Assembly: GCA_051313645.2 (NCBI GenBank)
Contig: JBNRSN020000013.1
Location: forward strand, 50,592,001-50,656,000
Length of the DNA stretch: 64,000 nt
Reading direction: 5' to 3'
Source: Centroscyllium fabricii
Lineage: Eukaryota
Below, piece by piece: positions 3,971-61,557 of this stretch (its first letter is position 1; the number at the start of each line of letters is the position of its first letter). The translations under genes were made by a program, and so were the position numbers. The notes under the pieces are model-generated. The model was not told the origin of the DNA, did no database searches, and saw only the letters and a list, made by a program, of their open reading frames with translations.

Positions 3971-4340
3971 ACACGGTGGCACAGTGGTTAGCACTGCTGC
4001 CTCGCAATAAGGAGCTCCTGGGTTCGAATCCTGCTTGGCCCGGGACCTCTGCGTGGAGTTTGCATGTTCTCCCCCTGTTCGTGTGGGTTTTCTCCGGGTA
4101 CTCCGGTTTCCTCCCCCCACCCAAAGCCATGCAGGTTAGGTGAATTGGAGATGCTAAAAAAAATTGCCCGTGAGTATGTGTGTGGGATATAGTTCTTAGA
4201 GTTGGGGGTGTCGGGGGATATGGGGAGAGGGTAGGAGGGTGGGTGCTGGGTTTGGATGATCAGCCATGATTGCATTGAATGGCGGAGCAGGCTCGAAGGG
4301 CCGAATGGCCTACTCCTGCTCCTATCTTCTGTGTTTCTGT
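3971..4340 (+). mobile_element. HE1-like tRNA-derived V-SINE with CR1/HER1 tail
   Basis: A box TGGCACAGTGG, B box GGTTCGAATCC, V-domain GTGGAGTTTGCATGTTCTCCCC, tail GGCCGAATGGCCTACTCCTGCTCCTAT. Confidence 0.9.
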
Positions 4341-4379: not shown

Positions 4380-4700
4380 AAATAAAAACAGAAAATGCTG
4401 CAAATAGATGGTGAGTCAGTCAGCAGTCTCTCTCTGTCCACCTGACGAAGGGGCAGACGTTCCGAAAGCTTGTGATTTAAAATAAAACCGTTGTACTATA
4501 ATCTGGTGTTGTGTGACTTCTTGCATTTGTCCACCCCAGTCCAACACCGGCACCTCCACATTAAAGCATAAAGAGCAGCAGACACACACAAAACTTCATT
4601 CCTTGTCTTTTATCCATACATATCTGGCTGAGCTGCTGCGCATTGCCAGCATTTTCCGTTTTTATTTTATATGTCCAGCATTTGCAGTATTTCCTGTTTA
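4380..4700. mobile_element. Penelope-like element terminal-repeat fragments containing a minimal hammerhead motif (4438-4474)
   Basis: CAC-CTGACGA-AGGGGCAGACGTTCC-GAAA-GCTT-GTG; the same repeat occurs at 9458-9707, 25022-25140, 27975-28054 and 55878-56075. Confidence 0.7.
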
Positions 4701-8870: not shown

Positions 8871-9457
8871 AGTTACGAAGTCCTGTTGCGGACTCTTTGG
8901 CCTTTGCGGGATTACAGGCTGAAATTCTTCAAATTGTTTCAAAAAATCTCTAAATCAGCTGGGCGTTCCATTGAATTCACCTTCCGACAACAAATGTCGC
9001 TTCATACCGACTGGCTATAATGTGTAACCAGACAGTGAATAATAGTGACCCAATTATAGTTCATTCATTCGCAATATTTAACTGATGGAGTTATAATTGT
9101 TTGAGTTAGAATTCGACAGTTAAAGATTAGATCCTGAAATATATTACTTTCCAAATTGAGTATATCATATTGACGCAAACACTTTGGTGTGAACGATATA
9201 AAGTCAGCACTTTCGCTTATGTTGTAACTCATAAATGTTAGCTACAGAGAGCTTAACGAGTTGTTACAATATATATGGAACGCACAATAGCAAAATACAG
9301 CAGGTGCTGGAAATCCGAAATAACAACAGAAAATGCTGCAAAAACTCAGCAGGCCAGGCAGCATGTTGCTTAGCCTGCTGAGTTTTCCCAGCATTTTCTG
9401 TTATATATGGGACGTACCCTGACCTACAAGGTCGAGCTATCTTACTTTATTTTTCCA

Positions 9458-9707
9458 TGATGTGGAGGTGCCGGTGTTGGACTGGGGTGGACAAATCCAA
9501 GAAGTCACACAACACCAGGTTATAGTCCAAGGTTTTATTTTAAATCACAAGCTTTCGGAGCGTCTGCCCCTTCGTCAGGCGAAAGAGAAGCTGACTTAAA
9601 GAACGCAGCTTCTCTTTCGCCTGACGAAGGGGCAGACGCTCCGAAAGCTTGTGATTTAAAATAAAACTGTTGGACTGTAACCTGGTGTTGTGTGACTTCT
9701 TGCATTT
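9458..9707. mobile_element. Penelope-like inverted terminal repeats forming a palindrome with arms of about 95 bp and hammerhead motifs on both strands
   Basis: 9499-9593 is the reverse complement of 9606-9701; CTGACGA...GAAAGCTT core in each arm. Confidence 0.75.
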
Positions 9708-10019
9708 ATTTTTCCAGAGAGTGATTCCGAATGCCAGAACGTTTTCCAAAACTTAAGCATTGAAAAGTCAGTTAAGGTGCGCACAGGTCAGCTGGAAGTT
9801 GCCAGGTGAGCTCTGCAGGTTACTGTACCTATCTGCTCGGGTAAGTGGGTCTGTTCAGCCTCTCTGCCATCTCCAAGAGTCGGGCGCTCGGTGCAACTCA
9901 ACCAAGAGGAGCCGCTCTCTTCACCGAGGTTCACTCCTCCAAGCTCCAGATCGGGTTTTCCTCTTCGCCCAAACTTCGTGTTGGAGGAAAGTAAAAAAAA
10001 GCGGCTCGACAGCCCTCCC

Positions 10020-24620: not shown

Positions 24621-27412
24621 GAAAGCCATAAAGCTTAGCATAACAAAACGAAACCTACTTATTAGCTTAGTAGTAAATTAATGCAAAACCACTGGTATTC
24701 ACCCAGGTTTGAAAACAGCCTCCCGCAACTTTATAATGCTTTATTGCTGAAGGAATCCAGACTTGAAATTTGAATCGGACAGATGAGTTAATCTGGTAAA
24801 TTCCAATAAACGTGTTTTCAGACGGCTGCTGTGATTTAAAGCTATTTATCCCACACGGAATGGGATAAATGACACAAAGCGATGTCCGACGGCAGCAGGG
24901 CCTGGAAATAAACGGCAAGTTCGACATTACTCAGGAAAGTCCAACTGATTCTGCGAGTACTTATGTATGAATTTGGAGTGTAAACGCATCGTTATGAACT
25001 GTTCCTTGCCATTCCTTCCATAAATGCAAGAAGTCACACACCAGGTTACAGTCCAACAGTTTTATTTTAAATCACAAGCTTTCGGAGCGTCTGCTTCTTG
25101 CATTTGTCCACCCCAGTCCAACACCGGCACCTCCACATCATTCCTTCCACAGGCTGTGAATTATTTATGCTAATCTTTTATATGTATTTATAATAAAAAT
25201 AGGAAATGGTGGACATACAGAGAGAAAAAGGCAGATTAATATGTGGGAAAACATTAACACACACTTTTCACTTTGAGATGCTGCTGTGTGTCAGCAACAT
25301 TTGCTGTATTTATTTCAGATTTTCAGCATGAACAGTTTCTTTTACCTTTTTTATGTATATTAGGTACAATACATAAACGATACACAAAGAGGAAATGCAG
25401 GCGAGGGCAAAGCAACTAAATTGCTTACAAGAATGACGCATCTTGTATTGGAATGCCAAAGATTGGGTTGGCTGCAGAGATGCTTTTCGGACCCTCATTG
25501 AATTATATTCTGACTAAAAGCTGCAGTTGTTCAATGTTTCAGTACACCCAATTAGGGCTCACAGGTGCATATTTCACTCACCATTACTGTCAACGTGAAG
25601 TGAGTTCACAGACAATAGTAAAACAGAGGATATTGCCTGATGAAGCTGCGAACTATATTTATTCCACAGTGGGAGGAGAATTGTACATCATTGGTGAGGG
25701 GCAGAGCTGGTAGTTACTTGGGTCTCCTTCAGGACTGCACGGGCTTCCTGTCCAGTATTCTTCTTATATAATGTAACAACAGTATTCTCATTCATTTATG
25801 TGACACAGTTCTGTGTTATGCAGTTATAATTACAATAGATTTACTTTCCGGCAGTGGAGCATTGGTCTGGTATAATGATCTTTTTTCTCGCCACTGTAGA
25901 ATACAATGAAGGATTGGCCCTGAGCAGTTCTCATTGCAGTGCATGTGATGACATCAGTTGGCGAGAGTTTATCATGAAGAAGTGCCTGTATGCTTCTCGT
26001 TAGACTATTCTCTGGGTGGGTAGGTTTGTTTCACTTTATGTTATTTAGGTGCTGGTTTTCTAATTCTCAGGTGTTTATTTTTTTCAAATTTCGAGCCAAG
26101 TGTCAACCAGTTTTGCTTTGCGCCACAAACGTCCCAGATTCACTGGTGCCAGTTGTTGGAATGGAGCCACTACAGTTACAGATAGTGTTCTTTGTTGGTT
26201 TAAACCCAGAGTTTATTTTTTAATAACTGGCATTGCTAATGCAGGAAAATAGTTCTGGCGTGGTCACATATTGAGATTCTGTACTTCATGTATGTGAGAT
26301 AACATTCATCCCAGTAAGTTCTGTGCCACGCACCTTTCCTCAAACCCAGTCTCAGAGTTTGGACGCACAGTATCCTGAAGGCTGTCTGTACAACATGAGT
26401 GAGGAGTCCGATTCAGGTGAAGATATTCTTACAAAATGTGCTAACATATTGATTGACAACCAATCACCCATTCAGTGTATCAATTGGATACTGTTTCAGT
26501 CCAGGCAGCAAGTTTTGTAAGTAGCTGAAGATGTAAAAACATAGTGGCTGAAGTTGCAGCACAATTTGTAACTGCGTGCTAATAATAGACTTTATACTGT
26601 ATGCGAATTAAGTATAAGCAAGTTAATCTGAAGGACAAGGCTATGGGTCCAATCCTTTAATGACTACTATTCTTAATTTCCCAGCACAGTGTAGTCAAAG
26701 TATATTATTACTTCATCATTACACCTTCTGGATATCGTCTCAAAATGGATTTATCAAGGGATACAAAAGTAACCGAGGCTGTTTTCCTTCATTGTAGCAC
26801 TCTCCACATACCATATAATTGAGGCCAGATTGTCAATTGGGAAAATTATTAGGGACTTTAAGATATTTTGATGTAAACTATATCATAACATACGGATATT
26901 TATTACCCACCTAACCTCCCTTTCCCACTCGTAAAAACATCCCTCCCCAACCTAACTCGCCCATTTTTACTTGTCTGCATGAAGATTCCTACCTGGCTGT
27001 TCCACACTTCAAATTTGTTTCAAAGTATTTTCTAATACGTTTTAAAACACACTAATAACAAGTTTTACCAGTTTAACAATTTTAACTTGGTTTTATATTC
27101 AATAAAGTAAAATAAATTCTAATAGGAATGTAATCCCACAGCTTAAGTCTTAAATGCTGTTCAAAGTGCTCAAAAACCTTGCTGATTGGCACAGAGTGTG
27201 GCTGAAGTGTTTTGCATTGAAGTGTGATATGCAGGCATGTCAGACCTGCTTCAAATTCTCATCTAGATCCAAACAAAAAGCATCTTCAACATAGGAAAAG
27301 GATCACAAAGGAATGCACCAACCAGAAGATTTGAGCTCAAAATGTCAGGTGAGTGAGTGTCAGGGCACTAGACCTTTTCTACAAAGGGATGATGTTATGA
27401 AGGAAGATCCAT

Positions 27413-27975: not shown

Positions 27976-29959
27976 TAAGAAGTCACACAACACCAGGTTA
28001 TAGTCCAACAGTTTTATTTGTCTACCCCAGTCCAACACCGGCACCTCCACATCATTTCATCAATGGCACTGATTGAGGTCAACTTTGTGCACTTTGGCAG
28101 ATTTTGATCAGTCTTACATGGCACTAGCTAGTTTGCACCCAGGAATCAGTACTAACTAACTCTAGTGATGTTGCTGATTCTAGTTGGGGTCCCCAGTGCT
28201 GGTTGGTACCGAGAGGCTTCTAAGACACTTTTCTGAAAGTGTCATGCTTAACACCTAAGGGAAAGAAGCATTCTTAATCCTTTGCTATTGTATTAACTCC
28301 TACTTTATGGATGTTTCAAGCAAGCCCTCAGACACTCTTCATTTCGAAGTTTGAGACTATGGATCACCAACTAGAAGTTTATGGAACACAGTTCTATCTT
28401 GGGCAACAATTCTATCTAGAAGCTGACAGGGAACATTGTCCTCTTCATCTCAGTTGTCAAGAGCTTCACCAAAATAAACTTCTAAGTGAGGACACGTTCA
28501 AAACAGCCTGCTTCAAATTATTCAACCATCTGCTCAGGAGATTGGTTTACTGCCAGCAACCTCAGGGATGCTTACTTTCACATGGCAATCGCCCTTGAGC
28601 GTTGCAAGTTTCTGAGGTTTTCCATTTGAATTACCATTGCAACATGGTCCCCTTCAGCCGTAACTCTGCTCCCAAAGTATTTTCTGTTGCTGCAACCATC
28701 TACGTTTGAAGCACTACCACTTTTATCCCTAGTTAGTTGGTTCATCAGAAATGCTTACAAGAATACTACTCAAGCCATAGTTCAGTAGATTTTTTTCTAT
28801 GTTCTGGAAGTTCAGATTTATTGTCAACTATGATAAATCCCAGTTGCAGCCAATACAGGCTGTGATGTTCATAATGGATCACAAACCTTTGGTATGTTAA
28901 CTTGAAAACCAAACACAGGTCAGTATTGTCCTGAAAACAAATATGATCCCTCTATTTTCTCTGATTCCTAAAGCATTCCACACAATAAAAATGGAGATTG
29001 CAATGATAATTTTGATAACCCAGCATTGACCACAAAAGTTGTGATTCTCAGACATTCTGAGTAGTGTTCTGCAACATATGAGGAACCTATCGCCCCAATT
29101 ATTTGGTTAGATTCTTCATCCGATGCCAGCAGGCTTCTCCTTAACCTGCTGGCTATTAAAATGGAATAGTCCCCAGTAAAAGGATCTCTTCTTATGTTTT
29201 GGTGGCTTTCAGAAAACCTCCCATTAATAAAGCTTCGAATGCAAAATGGAAGAAATTAAGTATGTAGTGTTGTACCAAGAACCTGGGTCTACTGTCATAT
29301 AAGACTGCTCACATTTTAAATGACCATTATAATTCATTAACTGAACCTTGAAGCTAACATCCATTAATTCTATCTTGTAGGCATTGCAACCTTTCATTAT
29401 TTTCACAGGAGGGGCACTGGTGGGCTGAGGTTGGGGTAGAGTTGGAGGGGTTGGTTGAAGTTCTGTGACACTGCTACTGTGCTCTAAAGAGGAGAAACCT
29501 GCTCCAATGTTCTTGTTTATAAATCACTCTGCAGGCTCTCCTCCCTACCTTAGTGATCTCCTCCTGCCTTACATCACTGTGCTCAACCCGACTCCTCTGA
29601 AACCAGATTCTTCCATTATGCTCCTGCTCGCTGGAATTCTAAACCAAGTTCCCAATCCATGGCTCTCCATTGTTCTTCCAGTTACCCACACTTCATGACC
29701 ACTATCTCTACTTCTTCCGTTTTGTAAAGCACTCAAAGGCATCTTCTACACATGAAGAGTGCTATATAAGTGCAAGTTGTTAGTGTTATTGAAAGAACAA
29801 ATAAGTTTTGCAAATTTCAGAAACTGTCCTTTAAGACTTACGTACAGGTACCTGGTAATAGTGCTTTTAGTGAACATTAGTATGCATCATTATCATTTAA
29901 TTGGTAAGAAACCCTTAGGTGAAGTTCATGAGCATTTGATGAAATGCTGTTACTTTGTG

Positions 29960-31598: not shown

Positions 31599-31850
31599 TA
31601 ACATAAGAAATAGGAGCAGGAGTAGACCAATCGGCCCCTCGAGCCTGCTGCACCATTCAATAAGATCATGGATGATCTGATCTTAGCCTCAACTCTACTT
31701 TCACTTTCCATCCCACCCAAAACCATGTGATCTCCTGGGAGAGGCGAAAAACCAGGTAAAATACCCAGGCCAACTTGGGGAAAAAATCTGGGAAATTCCT
31801 CAACAACCCATCTAGGTGATCGAAACTTGTCCAGGAGATCACTCTGACCC
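31599..31850 (-). mobile_element. CR1/HER1 3' end carrying a double U-rich internal-loop (dENE-like) module
   Basis: AACATAAGAAATAGGAGCAGGAGTAG tail; perfect 12-bp inverted repeat at 31727-38 and 31831-42. Confidence 0.75.
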
Positions 31851-35095: not shown

Positions 35096-35344
35096 GGCAG
35101 CTGGTGGAATTTAAATTCAATGCAATTTAATTCTGGAATTAAATGTTAGTCTTAGTGATGGCGACCATGATACCATTGTCGATTGTTGCAAAAACCCATC
35201 TGGTTCACTAATATCCTTTAGGGAAGGAAATCTGCCGTCCTTACCTGGTCTGGCCTACATGTGACTCCAGACCCACAGCAATGTGGTTGACTCTTAATGC
35301 CCTCTGAAATGGCCTAGCAAGCCACTCAGTTGTAAACAACCGCT

Positions 35345-38300
35345 ATGAAAAACAATAAGAATAAAACCGGACGGACCACCCGGCATCGACCTCGGCACCG
35401 GAAACGACAACGTCAACGGCAAACCCGGCCCTGTCGACCCTGCAAAGTCCTCCTCACAAACATCTGGGGACTTGTGCCAAAATTGGGAGAGCTGTCCCAC
35501 AGACTAGTCAAGCAACAGCCTGACATAGTCATACTCACAGAATTATACCTTACAGCCAATGTCCCAGACACCAGCATCACCATTCCTGGGTATGTCCTGT
35601 CCCACCGTCAGGACAGACCCACCAGAGGTGGTGGCACTGTGATATACAGTCGGGAGGGAGTAGCCCTGGGTGTCCTCAACATTGACTCAGGATCCCATGA
35701 GGTCTCATGGCATCAAGTCAAACATGGGCAAGAAAAAATCCTACTAATTACCACCTACCGCCCTCCCTCAGCTGATGAATCAGTACTCCTCCATGTTGAA
35801 CATCAATTGGAAGAAGCACTGAGAGTAGCAAGGGCACAAAATGTCCTCTGGGTGGGGGACTTCAATGTCCATCACCAAGAGTGGCTCGATAGCACCACAA
35901 CTGACCGAGCTGGCCGAGTCCTAAAGGACATAGCTGCCAGACTGGGTCTGCGACAGGTGGTGAGGGAACCAACAAGAGGGAAAAACCTACTTGATCTCGT
36001 CCTCACCAATCTACCTGTTGCAGATGCATCTGTCCATGACAGCATTGGTGGAAGTGACCACCGCACAGTCCTTGTGGAGACGAAGTCCCGTCTTCATGTT
36101 GAGGATACCCTCCACCGTGTTGTGTGGCACTACCACAGTGCTAAATGGGACAGATTTCGAACAGATCTGGCAACTCAAAACTGGGCATCCATGAGGCGCT
36201 GTGGGCCATCAGCAGCAGCAGAATTGTATTCAACCACAATCTGTGACCTCATGGCCTGGCATATCCCTCACTCTACCATTACCGTCAAGCCGGGAGATCA
36301 ACCCTGGTTTAATGAAGAGTGCAGGAGAGCATGCCGGGAACAGCACCAGGCATACCGAAAAATGAGGTGTCAACCTGGCGAGGCTACAACACAGGACTAC
36401 TTGCATGCCAAACAACAGAAGCAACATGCGATAGACAGAGCTAAGCGATCTCATAACCATCGGATCAAATCAAAGCTCTGCAGTCCTGCCACATCCAGTC
36501 GTGAGTGGTGTTGGACTATTAAACAGTTAACAGGAGGAGGAGGCTCCAAAAATATCCCCATCCTCAACGATGGTGGAGCCCAGCACGTGAGTGCAAAAGA
36601 TAAGGCTGAAGCATTTGCTACTATCTTCAGCCAGAAATGCCGAGTGGATGATCCATCTTGGCCTCCTCCTGAGGTCCCCAGCATCACAGATGCCAGACTT
36701 CAGCCCATCAATTCACTCCACGTGATGTTAAGAAACGGCTGAAGACACTGGATACTGCAAAGGCTATGGGCCCTGACAACATTCCGGCAATAGTACTGAA
36801 GACTTGTGCTCCAGAACTAGCTGCGCCCCTAGCCAAGCTGTTCCAGTACAGCTACAACACTGGCATCTACCCAGCAATGTGGAAAATTGCCCAAGTATGT
36901 CCTGTCTACAAAAAGCAGGACAAATCCAACCCGGCCAATTACCGTCCCATCAGTCTACTCTCAATCATCAGCAAAGTGATGGAAGGTGTCGTCGACAGTG
37001 CTATCAAGCGGCACTTACTCAGCAATAACCTGCTAACTGACGCCCAGTTTGGGTTCCGCCAGGGCCACTCAGCTCCTGACCTCATCACAGCCTTGGTCCA
37101 AACATGGACAAAAGAGCTGAACTCAAGAGGAGAGGTGAGAGTGACTGCCCTTGACATCAAGGCAGCATTTGATCGAGTGTGGCATCAAGGAGCCCTGGCA
37201 AAGCTGAAGTCAATGGGAATCAAGGGGAAAACTCTCCCTTGGTTGGAATCATACTTAGCACAAAGGAAGTTGGCTGTGGTTGTTGGAGGTCATTCATCTC
37301 AACCACAGGATATCACTGCAGGAGTTCCTCAGGGCAGTGTCCTAGGCCCAACCATCTTCAGCTGTTTCATCAATGACCTTCCCTCCATCATGTCAGAAGT
37401 GGGGATGTTTGCTGATGATTGCACACTGTTCAGCACCATTCGAGACTCGGCAGATACTGACGCAGTCCGTGTCCATATGCAGCAAGATCTGGACAACATT
37501 CAGACTTGGGCTGACAAGTGGCAAGTGACATTCGCACCACACAAGTGCCAGGCAATGACCATCTCCAACAAGCGAGACTCTAACCATCTCCCCTTGACAT
37601 TCAATGGCATTATCATCGCTGAATCCCCCACTATCAACATCCTGGGAGTTACCATTAAAGAACATAAGAACATAAGAAATAGGAGCAGGAGTAGGCCAAT
37701 CGGCCCCTCGAGCCTGCTCCGCCATTCAATAAGATCATGGCTGATCTGATCCCAACCTCAATTTTATTTTAACTCTCCACCCGACCCAAACACATGTGAT
37801 CACCCGGGAGAGGCGAAAAACCAGATAAAAAACCCAGTAGCCAATTTGGGAGAAAAAATCTGGGAAATTCCTCTCCGACCCATCTAGGCGATCGAAAACT
37901 GGTCCAGGAGATCACATGTCCGATCTGAACCTATCCTCACGTCCACTTGCCTGCCCGCTCACCATAACCCCCAATTCCCTTTTCTTCCAGGAAACTGTCT
38001 ATCTCTGTTTTAAAATTATTCAAAGTAGTAGCTTCCACAGCTCTCTGGGGCAGAGAATTCCACAGCCCCACCACCCTCTGGCTGAAGAAATTCCTCCTCA
38101 TCTCTGTCCTAAATGAGTCACCCCTTATCCTTAGACTATGACCCCTGGTTCTGGACTCTCCTACCATCGGGAACATTCTTCCTGCATCAAGTCTGTCCAG
38201 ACCAGTTAGAATTTTATACGTTTCGATGAGATCCCCTCTCAATCTTCTAAACTCCAGAGAGTACAAACCCAGTCTACCCAGTCTCTCCCCATACATCAAT

Positions 38301-39150
38301 TCTGCCATCCCAGGTATCAGCTTGGTGAATCTCCTCTGCACTCCCTCCATTGCTAGAACGTCCTTCCTTAGATAAGGACACCAAAACTGCACACAGTACT
38401 CAAGGCTTGGTCTCACCAAGGCCCTGTACAACTGCCGCAAGACCTCCCTATTCCTGTACTCAAAACCTCTCGCTATGAAGGCCAACATACCATTTGCCTT
38501 CTTAACCGCCTGCTGCACCTGCATGCTCACCCTTAGCGACCGGTGCACCAGGACACCCAGGTCTCATTGATCGGAAACTGAACTGGACCAGCCATATAAA
38601 TACTGTGGCTACAAGAGCAGGCCAGAGGCTGGGAATTCTGCGGCGAGTGTCTCACCTCCTGACTCCCCAAAGCCTTTCCACCATCTACAAGGCACAAGTC
38701 AGGAGTGTGATGGAATACTCTCCACTTGCCTGGATGAGTGCAGCTCCAACAACACTCAAGAAGCTCGACACCATTCAGGATAAAGCAGGCCGCTTGATTG
38801 GCACTCCATCCACCACCTTCAACATTAACTCCCTCCACCACCGGCGTACTGTGGCTGCAGTGTGTACCATCTACAAGATGCACTGCAGCAACTCGCCAAA
38901 GCTCCTTCAACAGCACCTTCCAAACCCGCGACCTCTACCACTTAGAAGGACAAGGGCAGCAGACGCATGGGAACAGCACCACCTACAAGCCACACACCAT
39001 CCTGACTTGGTCCTGTATCGCCGCTCCTTCACTGTCACTGGGCCAAAATCCTGGAACTCCCTTCCTAACAACATTGTGGGTGTACCTACACCATATGGAC
39101 TGCAGCGGTTCAAGAAGGTGGCTCACCACCATCTTCTCAAGGGCAATTAG
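35345..39150 (+). pseudogene. Disrupted LINE endonuclease-reverse transcriptase ORF (about 964 aa reconstructed)
   Basis: APE motifs DIVILTE, YRPP, GDFNVHH, LDLVLTN, SDH; RT motifs GPDNIP, NYRPISLL, QFGFR, LDIKAAFDRVWH, GVPQGSVLGP, FADD. One frameshift at about 36710 and a CR1 insertion at 37657-38564; the frame resumes at 38569. Confidence 0.92.
37657..38564 (-). mobile_element. 5'-truncated CR1/HER1 LINE inserted in the tRNA-headed LINE
   Basis: ORF 37937-38548 (QVQQAVKKANGMLAFIARG...RLRGDLIETYKI...WNSLP); (TTCTTATG)n tail; CATT at both junctions (37653-56, 38565-68). Confidence 0.93.
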
Positions 39151-39439
39151 GGATGGGCACTAAATGCAGGCCTAGCCAGCCAGCGACGCCCACATCCCAT
39201 CAATGAATAAAAAATTTAAAAAACGCCCGACCACCCTTCGTGCGAACCGGCGGCGCCGCTGAGCGGCTGCGCCACAAACTGAAGGCTACCGGTTCCGAAC
39301 CACTGAAGTTGCCGGACCATTGGGTGCCGGATTAATGGTGCTCAACCTGTATTGAAGTCTTTAAAAACACACGGGTGCACAACGTCTGTATAGACACAAA
39401 TATAAGCACTACTCCTGCTGGCAACTCCTCAGAGTGAGA

Positions 39440-40560
39440 GCAGAAATTTATTTATTGCAGAACTTTGATATCCACTACTTGGAACACAAGGAAATACTTA
39501 GGGGACCTCCTTCTTGATGGCAGAGACTGCCTGGCTGGCAGATGCTATCAAAGTAAGCTTGAGGTTTTGCAGTGTATCTTGTACATAGTACACACTGCAG
39601 CCAGTGTGCAAGTGGTGCAGTTAGGAAACGGAGTCCTGAAGCAGGGGCACTGAAAGTTGACTGTTCTGTCTAGGATGGTGTGGAGCTGAGTATTCCAGCA
39701 CACTCTTGACTTGAGGTTTGAAGATAGTGGAGAAGGTTTGAGAGGTTGCCACAGGCGAGTCACCGGTTATAGATTAATCTCTGGCCTGCTCTTGTAATTA
39801 TGTTATGGCTGGTCCAATTATGCTTCTGGTCAATGGTGACCTCTAGGATATTGACTTAGCAATAGTGGTTCCATTGGAGGTCAGTAGGAGATAGTTGGGC
39901 TTTTACTTGTTCAGGATGGTCATTGTCTGACAATCGTGGCATGAATGTTACATACCACTTGTCCACTTGTTAGCCCAAGCTTGAAACATAGAAGATAGGA
40001 GCAGGAGTAAGCCATTCGGCCCTTCGAGCCTGCTCCGCCATTCAATGAGATCATGGCTGATCATCCAAACTCAGTACCCTGTCCCTGCCTTGTCCCCATA
40101 TCCCTCGATCCCTATCGAGCCTGCACCAACACATATCCCACCATATCCCCGTAACCCCACATATTCAATCCCCCCAACACTAAGGGTCAATTTATCATGG
40201 CCAATCAACCTAACCCGCACATCTTTGGACTGTGGGAGGAAACCGGAGCACCCAGAGGAAACCCACGCAGACACGGGGAGAATGTGCAAACTCCACACAG
40301 ATAGTACCCGAGGCTGGATTTGAACCCGGGTCTCTAGTGCTGTAAGGCAACAGTGCTAACCACTATGCCACCGTGCCGCTTGGATGCTGTCCAAGTCCCG
40401 TTGGAGGTTGACATGGGCTACTTCATTATCAGAGGGACTGTGAAAAGTGAACACTGTAAAATCATTATTAAACAGCTCTACTTCTGACCTTAAGATGGAG
40501 GGAAGTTCATTGAGGAAAGAACTGAGGATGTCTGAATGAAAGATACTGCCCGTAGGAATT
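39440..40560 (-). mobile_element. Old, diverged relative of the same LINE family, inverted, interrupted by an HE1 SINE
   Basis: TLAAVCTMYKIHCKTSS matches TVAAVCTIYKMHCSNS of the 38605 ORF; nucleotide similarity to the RT region. Confidence 0.7.
39984..40377 (-). mobile_element. HE1-like V-SINE
   Basis: Reverse complement of the GGCACGGTGGCATAGTGGTTAGCACTG head, V-domain and CR1 tail; GCTTG at both ends. Confidence 0.9.
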
Positions 40561-45164: not shown

Positions 45165-45597
45165 GAAACATAGAAGATAGGAGCAGGAGTAGGCCATTCG
45201 GCCCTTTGAGCCTGCTCCGCCATTCAAGTAGATCATGGCTGATCATCCAAATTCAGTACACTGTCCCTGCCTTCTCCCTATATCCCTTGATCCCTTCAGC
45301 CTGAAGAAATATATCCAACTCCTTCTTGAATATATTTAATGAACCGGCCTCCACCGCCCTCTGTGGCAGAGAATTCCACAGGTTCACCACTCTCTGGGTG
45401 AAGAAATTCCACCTCATCTCAGTCCTAAATGGCTTTCCCCTAATCGTTAGACTATGGCCCCTGGTTCTGGACTCCCCTTTCATTGGAAACATCCTTCCTG
45501 CATCCAGTCTGTCCAGGCCTGCAAGAATTTTATAGGTTTCGATGAGATCCCCTCTCAATCGTCTGAACTCCAGTGAGTATAAGCCCAATCGACTCAA
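45165..45597 (-). mobile_element. CR1/HER1 LINE 3' fragment
   Basis: RLGLYSLEFRRLRGDLIETYKIL...WNSLPQRAVEA plus tail. Confidence 0.92.
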
Positions 45598-51251: not shown

Positions 51252-52319
51252 GGTCCTGAATTTCCGATCGGAGGCTTTGTGCGGGCTGATGCCTCAGATC
51301 GGAAAAAATCTACGACCTTCCCTACTGGCTCCGTAGGTCCCGAGGCTTGCGATCCTGGGCCTCTGCTCTACGGAATGCGCAGAGGCCCAGGGGCGCATGT
51401 GGTTCACAAGTGTCCCTGCGATTACCTGGGCCATGGGGAACCAATCACTCAAAGAAGGGAATCACCCTTCACACTTTTGACAGGTCTGTACTTACAGAAC
51501 TGTCAAAAGTATGAATGGGATCACTTAAAAAACAGTAAAACATTAAATATATTTTTTTTAAATCACATTTAAAATTAATTTTAAAAAAATTTTGGAAAAA
51601 ATAATTCACTTTTTACACTGAGCTAAAAATAAACTTACCTTTTGTAAAAAATATTTTAAAATTATAAATCAGTGAATTTAAATTTTTTTTTTACAACTCT
51701 TATGCTGGTAAAAGCAGGCCTTATGCAAACTTTTACCAGGCGCAAGATTTTTAAAGGCTTTCAGCAGTGTTACTCTGCCCGCAGAGGCCCATCTCCTGAC
51801 ACGGTGGCGCAGTGGTTAGCACTGCTGCCTCGCAATAAGGAGCTCCTGGGTTCGAATCCCGCTTGGCCCGGGACCTCTCTGCGTGGAGTTTGCATGTTCT
51901 CCCCGTGTTCGTGTGGGTTTCCTCCGGGTACTCCGTTTCCTCCCACCACCCAAAGACATGCAGATTAGGTGAATTGAAGATAATAAAAAAAATTTAAAAA
52001 AAAAATTGCCCATGAGTATGTGTGTGAGATATAGTTCTTAGAGTTGGGGGTGTCGGGGGATATGGGGAGAGGGTAGGAGGGGGGTGCTGGGTTCGGATGA
52101 TCAGCCATGATCTCATCAAAAATGGCAGAGCAGGCTCGAAGGGCCGAATGGCCTACTCCTATCTTCTGTGTTTCTGGGGCATGTGTGGGATCTTTCAAGA
52201 GGATTCCTGACAGATTGCAAGCGCTGGGTTTTAGCGCATGCGCTTCGTATGCCTAAACCCAGCACTTGTGCAGCCCCTATGGATGCGTACACATCCGTGG
52301 GGGTCGGAAATTCCGGCCC
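51252..52319. mobile_element. MITE (32441 family) with nested HE1 V-SINE at about 51798-52175 (+)
   Basis: GGTCCTGAATTTCCGA / TCGGAAATTCCGGCCC termini; the SINE closely resembles 3971-4340. Confidence 0.8.
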
Positions 52320-55074: not shown

Positions 55075-55875
55075 GACATGAGCACAAACTGTGAAGAAGA
55101 ATGCAAGAGATTGCAGGAAGACGGTTAGGTTTAATGGACTGGGCAGACAGGCGGCAGATGCAGATCAATGTAGAGAAATGTGAGGTGGTACATTTTAGGA
55201 AAAAGAACAGTGAACAAAAGGGTACCATAAACAGCAAGACTCTTAAGAGTGGGGGGAAACAGAGATATCCATAGATCTTTAAAGCTGTGGGTACAGGTAG
55301 AAAGGGTCATTAAAAAGACAAATAGAATTCTCAGTTTTATCTTCAAGTACACTGAATTTATATAAATCATTGGTTAGGCCACAGCTGGAATGTTTTGTGC
55401 AGTTCTCAGCACCCCATTATAGGAAGCACATCAGGATCACGGGTAGGGTCCAGTAATGAGAGGTTAGTTATTAATGAAGCACACAAATTGGGCTTTTTTG
55501 CTGCGACAGAGAAATTAAAAGGAGAAATGGAATAGTTTTTTTTTTATTATGAAAGGTTTTGAGAGGGAAAATAATGAAAGATTGTTTGCACTGGTTGTTG
55601 AATTGGTGACAAGGGGGCACAAATTGAGGATCATTGAAGGAACAAAAAGTTGAAGTTCAAAGTTTTTCCCCCCCAGACAGAGGTTTATTAGAACATGTCA
55701 TGCTTTACTCCAAGTGGCTATTGAGGCAGAGGCTACAACATAATTCAACAGGGGACTGGATAAATTCTTTGATAAGGCAGAGTATTAAAGTGGAAAGGGC
55801 AGGGAAATAAGATTAGAAGATAGCTCCAGTTCCAGAAACAGCAGACACAATGGGCCTCCTCTGCTGTACATTCTA
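55075..55875 (+). mobile_element. Old CR1 fragment
   Basis: Decayed WADRRQMQINVEKCEVVHF-type motif; further CR1 pieces at 58040-58610 (-) and 59727-60087 (-). Confidence 0.65.
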
Positions 55876-56699
55876 TCATGTGGAGGTGCCGGTGTTGGAC
55901 TGGGGTGGACAAATGCAAGAAGTCACACAACACCAGATTATAGTCCAACAGTTTAATTTTAAATCACAAGCTTTCGGAGTGTCTGCCCCTTCGTCAGATG
56001 AAAGAGTGAAAAGCTTGTGATTTAAAATAAAACTGTTGGACTATAATCTGGTGTTGTGTGACTTCTTGCATTTGTACATTCTATGACCAGTTAGGGTTCG
56101 GAAAGTGCAGGAAAGTGGAGATGAGGTGGAAGATCAGCCATGATCTTATTGAATGGCGGAGCAGGCTCGAGGGGCCAAATGGCTTACTCCTGCTCCTATT
56201 TCTTGTGTTGGTACAGGAGTTAAACCATTACTATTCTGTAGGTGGTGCTATTGAGGCCAACAGCATGGCTACATTGGTTCAAGAGACAACAGTGATTGTG
56301 TATTAATATTGGAACTTTCAGATCAATTTTTAAAGAAAATCAAAACACTTTTTATTTGACCAATAAGCTATAATCTTCCACCTGTTCATCAGCAAGTATT
56401 ACAATCATATAAAATTGTAAGCACATCAGTAAGCCACTGTCCCAACGAGGTGATTCCAGTGTTGCTGCCCAGGAAAGGATTTTTAGCTGGAGCTGCCAGT
56501 CAATAGAAAAATATATTCTACCACATGGTAGATTCTAGCCACTGAACCTCAAAACCACAGCCTGTGTATAGTTATTAAACTGTGCACCAGTTACTCTGGA
56601 TTTATGGCATAGCTGTCTTATTCTGGTAATCTTAATTACCTTGCACGAAGCAGAACTATCACTGCAGGTAATGTAATGAACACTTCAATCACTAGTCAA

Positions 56700-60938: not shown

Positions 60939-61557
60939 CAGGTTGAACACAGTTAACCCGGCACCCTCGGGACCAGGCCGGTGCCGGACCACTGAAAATT
61001 CCGAACCACTGAAGGTTCGGGGGGAACGTGCGGTAGAACACTCCCCGGGAGGGAGCCTGTGGGGGGGGGATAGGACACTTAGAAGACCTAAAAAGAACAG
61101 CAACCCAAACGCCCGACGCTGTCGGCGCTCACTCACCCTTCGCGGGAAACGGTGGTGCCTCCGAGCGGCTGCTCCGCAAAATGAAGGGCGCCGGTTTCCA
61201 ATCGTGTTGGACACTGAAGCTGCTGGACCACAGAAACAGAAACACAGAAGATAGGAGCAGGAGTAGGCCATTCCGGCCTGCTCCGCCATTTTGAGATGAT
61301 CATGGCTGATCATCCAAACCCAGCACCCCCCTCGTACCCTCTCCCCATATCCCCCGACACACCCAGCTCTAAGAACTATATCTCACACACATACTCATGA
61401 GCAATTTTTTTAGTATCTCCAATTAACCTAACCTGCATGTCTTTGGGTGGTGCGAGGAAACTGGAGTACCCGGAGGAAACCCACACGAACACGGGGAGAA
61501 CATGCAAATTCCACGCAGAGAGGTACATCGGGTGCCGGATTACCGGTGCTCAAACTG
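60939..61557. mobile_element. Tigger-like MITE with nested HE1 SINE fragment (about 61228-61522, -)
   Basis: TA-CAGGTTGAACAC...GTGCTCAAACTG-TA; same family as 34839-39349. Confidence 0.88.

Follow-up and report, generated by a model that had tools for sequence, protein, structure and literature searches.

A predicted ENE-like insert in the 3' untranslated region of a cartilaginous-fish CR1 subfamily

The 3' untranslated region (UTR) of a CR1-type long interspersed element (LINE) from Centroscyllium fabricii contains an insert whose predicted fold recalls the elements for nuclear expression (ENEs), hairpins in which opposed U-tracts clamp poly(A). The copy concerned, copy A, lies in a 64,000-nt stretch of contig JBNRSN020000013.1 (assembly GCA_051313645.2, positions 50,592,001 to 50,656,000), hereafter the window, to which all coordinates refer. 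The insert is real, structured by prediction and subfamily-wide in the 3'UTR of a cartilaginous-fish CR1; judging from the modelled fold, its upper domain is credibly ENE-like and its lower domain weak. That it would work as an ENE-like poly(A) clamp composed of one strong and one weak domain is a proposition whose chances we consider evenly balanced. Copy A and the predicted parts of its module are as follows.

37657-38564, minus strand: copy A, a 5'-truncated CR1-type LINE comprising the end of open reading frame 2 (ORF2), the 3'UTR and a terminal 8-nt microsatellite repeat.
37937-38563, minus strand: the C-terminal 208 codons of ORF2 in an open frame, with the stop at 37939-37937.
37905-37919, minus strand: 5' strand of the outer stem, 15 bp with 37792-37806 including one U-U mismatch and one U-G pair (pair probability 0.88-1.0).
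37877-37904, minus strand: 28-nt side hairpin that breaks the stem below the arm and creates a three-way junction (pair probability 0.66-0.87, register uncertain).
37870-37876, minus strand: 5' strand of the basal helix, GGAGAGG, partner 37807-37813 (pair probability 0.97-0.98).
37864-37869, minus strand: 5' side of the lower loop, AAUUUC, with three U only, opposite 37814-37820 (U3 unpaired with probability 1.00).
37858-37863, minus strand: 5' strand of the middle helix, 5 bp plus a closing U-A, partner 37821-37826 (pair probability 0.99, closing pair 0.94).
37851-37857, minus strand: 5' U-tract of the upper loop plus CU, U6 if 37858 is included, opposite 37827-37832 and unpaired.
37833-37850, minus strand: apical helix CCCA/UGGG with a variable 10-nt loop (pair probability 0.96-0.97).
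37827-37832, minus strand: 3' U6 tract of the upper loop (unpaired probability 1.00).
37814-37820, minus strand: 3' side of the lower loop, U5 plus CG (unpaired probability 0.98).
37792-37813, minus strand: 3' strand that runs unbroken through the basal helix and the outer stem, as predicted by folding.

Both the minimum-energy and the centroid folds of 37791-37919 place the arm within the outer stem, at -50.6 kcal/mol and with a z-score of -5.05, none of 200 shuffled sequences being as stable. The arm alone (37805-37877) has a z-score of -3.89, with one shuffle of 200 as stable. A preliminary description had read from the letters a double-ENE-like module of three helices on the minus strand, and these folds agree with it. 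Its placing of the module in a CR1 3'UTR on the sense strand is supported as well, the module beginning 18 nt past the ORF2 stop, and so is its estimate of about 150 nt to the 3' end of the element, the arm ending 147 nt from 37660, within the terminal repeat. The arm is made up of helices of 7, 5-6 and 4 bp with two internal loops between them, and in copy A the basal, middle and apical helices were predicted with pair probabilities of 0.96-0.99, and the U-tracts as unpaired, in each of five sequence contexts of 129 to 746 nt. At 5-6 bp the middle duplex is presumably shorter than that of the rice double ENE TWIFB1. The architecture of three helices inside an outer stem is as first described, but the side hairpin makes its base a three-way junction.

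In the upper loop of copy A five or six U residues lie opposite a tract of six, unpaired with probabilities of 0.84-1.00 between helices of 0.96-0.99, so that at least four opposed U pairs would be on offer. Four consecutive U-A-U triples support a triple helix according to PMC7583470, a threshold that comes from a passage there on model triplexes and is not a published rule for double ENEs. The upper loop is closed by C-G above and, below, by U-A and then A-U ahead of the first G-C. The lower loop is closed by C-G above and G-C below, has an extra CG after U5 on its 3' side, and lies 7 bp above the point at which the side hairpin, of uncertain register, interrupts the stem. With only three U residues on its 5' side it would hold three U-A-U triples at most. 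The earlier claim of two opposed U-rich loops is thus sound for the upper loop and true only in part of the lower. Two ENE-like loops separated by a duplex of 5-6 bp do reproduce, in the model, the layout of a double ENE, the upper loop suits the class that had been proposed, and the interrupted basal stem bears a resemblance to it. Since, however, only the upper domain provides a loop with four opposed U pairs, the predicted module is a double ENE in outline and is not assignable as a member of that class. A descriptor of opposed U-tracts found one double-domain match on the two strands of the window, the module itself; among 60 Markov replicates, each 64 kb long and likewise searched on both strands, there were no double-domain matches at order 1 or at order 5, and five and four single-domain matches respectively, a chance figure that is flattering because the descriptor was composed after the example was known.

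The known systems are compared here through the accessible portions of the papers cited. Double-domain ENEs combine a PAN-like upper loop with a lower domain having a 3-4 nt bulge and an interrupted stem, and in TWIFB1 of rice most activity comes from the upper domain (PMC7583470); an adenosine triad and a pocket for the 3' end of poly(A) are described in PMC13541005. In common with them, as known from these two sources, the shark module has two U-rich loops and a short duplex in one hairpin following an ORF, an upper domain more regular than the lower, and a predicted interruption of the stem under the lower loop. It differs in sitting in a vertebrate element that lacks long terminal repeats (LTRs) and has a microsatellite end, in a lower loop whose 5' side has U3 after AA, and in an interruption that takes the form of an entire side hairpin. 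With its five or six opposed U pairs the upper loop would have enough for the five U-A-U triples of the PAN ENE from Kaposi's sarcoma-associated herpesvirus (PMC7583470), which is a single domain, whereas the shark module has a second loop, a long outer stem and the U-A/A-U closure below the upper loop before the first G-C. Four U-tracts, a fold-back and a position after the ORF of a retroelement are also features of the Arabidopsis Evade (Copia93) ENE, whose spacer is unusually long and which, in the 3'UTR of its element, raises RNA stability and transposition (PMC12501189). Evade, however, belongs to the LTR elements, its RNA is polyadenylated and its function has been tested, while the shark module belongs to a CR1 LINE and is predicted only. 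Like MALAT1 and MEN-beta, finally, the module is a vertebrate hairpin with U-rich internal loops close to an RNA 3' end; theirs, as described in PMC7583470, consist of one domain, contain tracts broken by G/C that match an encoded A-rich end, and are cut by RNase P at a tRNA-like structure, none of which was seen in the shark module.

The host element is provisionally named CR1 on the basis of its protein relatives, its microsatellite end and its truncation, no named match among those listed being labelled CR1. Among the best 120 of 2866 matches to the end of ORF2, the closest named proteins, 67-77% identical, belong to skate, rays and bamboo shark, and bird reverse-transcriptase proteins are around 50% identical; a Pfam search with the 208-codon piece matched no family. 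An ORF2 related to vertebrate CR1-type proteins, a microsatellite 3' end devoid of poly(A) and 5' truncation are together what is expected of a CR1 host, and a 4-nt duplication (37653-37656 and 38565-38568) flanks copy A. Copy A resembles the HER1 LINE and HE1 short interspersed element (SINE) pair of sharks and rays (PMC3747384) and the chondrichthyan CR1s (PMC13343379) in its CR1-type ORF2 end with cartilaginous-fish relatives and in a 3' terminus of about 90 nt common to several repeats of the window. A difference is that the accessible parts of these papers mention no structured U-rich insert; the likeness to HER1 is one of description, not of its sequence.

Within the window the module has a restricted distribution, for which the following features are needed.

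37657-37750, minus strand: terminal segment of about 90 nt that includes a stem-loop (37682-37720) and recurs at the other CR1- or SINE-type ends of the window.
37751-37791, minus strand: variable linker, G-rich and then A-rich, with AATAAA at 37768-37763.
31600-31842, minus strand: copy B, a decayed 3'UTR-only copy with the whole module, 88% identical to copy A over 247 columns.

Self-comparison shows the module to be part of an insert of about 180 columns in copy A that is absent from seven other related 3' ends, which have just the last 90 nt or so in common with it. The preliminary description had named two such ends, near 45165 and 58040; both do lack the module, as do five more, and copy B, a second module copy, was missing from its list. 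One of the seven (45.2-45.6 kb) has a related ORF2 end by DNA similarity, and the rest may be SINEs. Two similar copies of the 3'UTR start form the edges of the insert (37915-37939 and 37736-37760, 80% over 25 nt), which suggests, from the sequence, that a duplication lay at its origin. Because the insert duplicates the 3'UTR start, the outer-stem 3' strand (37792-37801) is by eye partly complementary to a small hairpin (37731-37745) at the start of the terminal 90 nt, a pairing that is not a favoured fold. In UTR versions with substituted letters, the stem of the terminal stem-loop has a pair probability of 0.96-0.98. Copy B is itself 5'-truncated at 31842, having lost the first few bases of the outer stem, and so consists of module and 3' end with no ORF2 sequence. 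A hexamer search found AATAAA in one of the two window copies, copy A and not copy B. Three similar repeats of about 300-380 nt (3971-4340, 51799-52176 and 61236-61520) have the CR1 terminal 90 nt and lack the ORF2 end; these are possibly HE1-type SINEs.

The stretch is present, in whole or in part, in 20 of 22 public runs listed, and four of these, X1, X5, X11 and X15, from four coded organisms, were compared (word shares 0.79, 0.74, 0.29 and 0.25); X1 or X5 could come from the window's own source. Runs X17-X20, which are RNA with shares of 0.04-0.07, lie outside this comparison and carry no weight in it. All four cover the module, and in each of them single contigs cross from the ORF2 stop into it (record 21 of X15, records 15 and 16 of X11, record 30 of X5 and record 8 of X1, the last reaching no further than the outer stem). 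Because the module is joined to the ORF2 end in all four, these sequences make it a trait of a CR1 subfamily in several organisms, and together with its absence from the seven related ends they uphold the restriction to a subfamily that had been suggested. Module and ORF2 end are covered to a depth of similar order; depth falls in the linker in three of the four runs and is about ten times greater in the terminal 90 nt, read depth being no measure of copy number; the lower coverage of the linker, taken at 80% likeness, is a weak measure.

Variants were available as 40 of 105 rows, unlinked, of which 13 fall within 37792-37921. Seven of the 13 concern paired sites and all seven keep pairing: a U-U mismatch becomes a pair in one, wobble exchanges account for four, and the remaining two make up the opposite sides of a single A-U/C-G swap. 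The other six lie in loops. The swap is that of the end pair 37919/37792, which is A-U in copy A and C-G by majority letters in all four runs, linkage of its two sides not being established. Listed changes in the U-tracts are mostly gains of U, at 37815 (where C reads U at 41% of depth in X11), at 37852 and through an insertion reaching 17% of depth in X11. One U is dropped in one X15 contig, and an interruption at 37855 appears at about 1% in three runs and in one X15 contig. Two letters that would perfect the outer stem are mostly in the minority (26-42% and 8-58%). Differences between copies A and B occupy 12 of the 42 linker columns and 14 of the module's 122 (Fisher p 0.014). This contrast and the paired-site variants point weakly to constraint in the sequence, weakly because the listed rows contain no two-sided change, and hence no covariation, in the arm and because the copies share ancestry. 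Loop position 37839 is variable in all four runs, and with its majority letter (57-75% in the four) the apical loop 37837-37846 has a self-complementary 6-mer of kissing-loop type, of which copy B keeps just the central four bases.

Our favoured mechanism is one in which a chondrichthyan CR1 subfamily would have gained, where its 3'UTR begins, a structured insert with ENE-like action. The intronless Pol II transcript would be polyadenylated at a site beyond the insertion point or, for some lineages, at the linker AATAAA, and the tail would fold back into the upper loop to form five or six U-A-U triples; the lower loop would add weaker contacts, at most three triples together with minor-groove contacts. 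Deadenylation and nuclear decay would be slowed, leaving a master element with more RNA for translation and retrotransposition, and the terminal 90 nt or so, common to the ends without a module, would stay the recognition site of the ORF2 protein. Since seven ends without the module were copied, it is dispensable for copying of this 3' end, which fits an accessory role in RNA level. Rather more tentatively, we propose that the CR1 lineage independently evolved a two-domain poly(A)-clamping triple helix, the first in a non-LTR retrotransposon. CR1 RNAs would then be polyadenylated and under selection against deadenylation, and the G-rich linker, together with the optional AATAAA, may toggle the RNA between a form that is stabilised and translated and one that serves as template.

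Several results weigh against the clamp. The U-A/A-U closure below the upper loop is unlike the G-C neighbours of the U-tracts in Evade, which are essential there (PMC12501189), and four consecutive U-A-U triples have no place in the lower loop, whose 5' side has U3 in both window copies and is extended by no listed variant. Copy A ends in a microsatellite repeat with no encoded poly(A), which leaves the source of the third strand unaccounted for; in the CR1 group Zenon alone has a poly(A) tail, according to PMC13343379. No two-sided change in the arm helices occurs among the 40 of 105 variant rows listed, and none of the four runs is established as RNA. A search of Rfam with 36500-39500 gave, up to E 10, the sole match MIR2275 and no family at threshold, which ENE models Rfam contains being left unchecked; MIR2275 was rejected as an identity, with 22.2 bits against a gathering threshold of 60.5 and a position outside the module. 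Copy B keeps 29 of 34 pairs and loses five. Its lowest-energy fold differs from the two-loop arm, a fold with the middle helix lying 0.3 kcal/mol higher, and that helix has a pair probability of 0.34 at 37 C, which drops to 0.05 at 20 C; this weak fold is consistent with decay after insertion, yet it lends no support.

The same side of the account includes a competing fold. When run-majority letters are set into the whole UTR of copy A, producing chimeric sequences, the arm has probabilities of about 0.4 (X1), 0.7 (X5) and 0.9 (X11 and X15) at 37 C, and of about 0.05, 0.4 and 0.67 respectively at 20 C. The competitor, in the combination that was inspected, joins the G-rich linker 37774-37789 to the arm's 3' strand at 37804-37819 and so excludes the ENE-like fold. 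Folded by itself, the module with majority letters remains at 0.9 at 37 C and 0.67 at 20 C, and in the whole UTR the arm regains 0.9 once the outer stem is perfected by the two minority letters. In copy A, which is the one intact real haplotype, the competing fold is absent and the arm has a probability of 0.96-0.99 at 37 C and of about 0.8 or more at 10-30 C. As the modelled sequences are chimeras of unlinked, partly known variants, the pairing of linker and arm may be an artefact; it may also be a real switch.

Among other explanations, a selected RNA structure with a different job strikes us as unlikely, though it is the one to be taken most seriously. The insert would then bind a protein or serve some other step: it might offer the ORF2 protein a second landing site, direct export or localisation of the RNA, or act as a switch whose G-rich linker unzips the arm, the U loops serving as protein sites or flexible hinges. 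Reverse transcriptases of several stringent LINEs do bind 3'UTR stem-loops with internal loops, as reported in the accessible part of PMC5135761, and CR1 has no encoded poly(A); the sole two-sided change among the listed variants, moreover, sits in the outer stem and not in the arm. Against this reading, seven window ends were copied without the module, which is therefore unnecessary for recognition of this 3' end. The mutually exclusive pairing of linker and arm competes in some letter combinations, as a switch would have it, but is lacking from the intact haplotype of copy A. Against all these jobs stands the pattern itself, two nested opposed-U loops, each closed by C-G above, which is not known to match any other element as well as it does ENEs. 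Less probable again is a neutral passenger, in which a template switch duplicated the 3'UTR start and an inverted repeat arose in one master, slippage supplied the pyrimidine runs and the insert spread with the active master. The two similar copies of the 3'UTR start at its edges, the resemblance of each arm strand to a two-unit tandem repeat and the free decay of copy B all fit such a history, and since all copies stem from few masters, sameness between copies or runs is not independent evidence. The U opposite U in both loops, however, is not a direct product of inverted duplication, which sets A opposite U; also against a passenger are the pairing kept in all seven listed paired-site rows, the faster divergence of the adjacent linker, and the persistence of the module in runs that have just 0.25-0.29 of sampled words in common with this copy.

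It is very improbable that the third strand is instead the element's own A-rich linker (37762-37771), in a MALAT1-like triple helix formed within the molecule and independent of a poly(A) tail. Such a helix would account for the presence of an ENE where no tail is encoded, and copy A does have an A4-U-A4 tract some 20-30 nt below the outer stem, which becomes A5-U-A4 where 37771 reads A, as it does at 47-81% of the covering depth in the four runs. The 3'UTR of copy B, on the other hand, has no run of four A, the depth of the linker is a fraction of that of the module in three of the four runs, and no blunt end would form, because about 100 nt needed for retrotransposition lie downstream. ARAGORN found no tRNA genes in the window, although mascRNA-like folds may escape it; on this result, and with the A-rich tract in one of two copies, a MALAT1-like locus was rejected.

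If the ENE-like clamp is real, its host would probably be a new one. DNA viruses, dicistroviruses, MALAT1 and MEN-beta, transposons of plants, fungi and slime moulds, and stickleback retroviruses are the ENE hosts listed in the accessible part of PMC7583470, LINEs not being among them, and most of the roughly 200 known motifs are from plants and fungi (PMC12501189). We found no ENE in a LINE in the open literature, a search that left the primary ENE surveys and most subscription papers outside, so that a prior mention is possible; a literature search for triple helix, LINE and shark, and for four sequence motifs of the module, likewise returned no paper. In the shark CR1 consensus table (supplement of PMC13343379), which gives the first 400 characters of each element and not the 3' ends, three of the four motifs had no match and one matched an unrelated Rex1 row. 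A metagenome scan with the pattern returned at least 119 loci, the best similarity among the matches listed being E 0.004 over 43 nt, which we take as chance, the pattern being too loose to argue absence. Two viral scans gave two loci, attributed to chance, and none, with no confirmed relatives of the ORF2 end, and a scan of prokaryote genomes gave at least 120 loci, the best of those listed a 21-nt match, and no homologue among them. Elements of the CR1 group account for 22-34% of the genomes of sharks and rays (PMC13343379, in its accessible part), so that a stability element in one CR1 subfamily would be present many times over and might influence host transcripts reading through its copies. 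The finding makes it testable whether and where microsatellite-ended CR1 RNAs receive poly(A), and whether RNA stability is part of what decides the expansion of a subfamily. A natural comparison is offered by sister subfamilies that have or lack the module.

Copy A is itself inserted, in the opposite orientation, in a further LINE, which lies outside the module and is given as context.

35336-39223, plus strand: host LINE of copy A, with matches to Pfam PF14529, PF03372 and PF00078.

This LINE has an endonuclease, a reverse transcriptase and a C-terminal frame, followed by AATAAA at 39206-39211 and then an A-rich tail. No ORF1 is evident within the 240 nt read upstream, and its features match the description of Zenon in the accessible part of PMC13343379. 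Elsewhere in the window, self-comparison revealed a tandem array at 1-1813 with a period of about 27 nt and copies around 92% alike. A palindromic repeat resembling a miniature inverted-repeat transposable element, about 215-260 nt long, lies at 9453-9709, with related pieces at 4423-4561, 25020-25142, 27977-28056 and 55871-56075.

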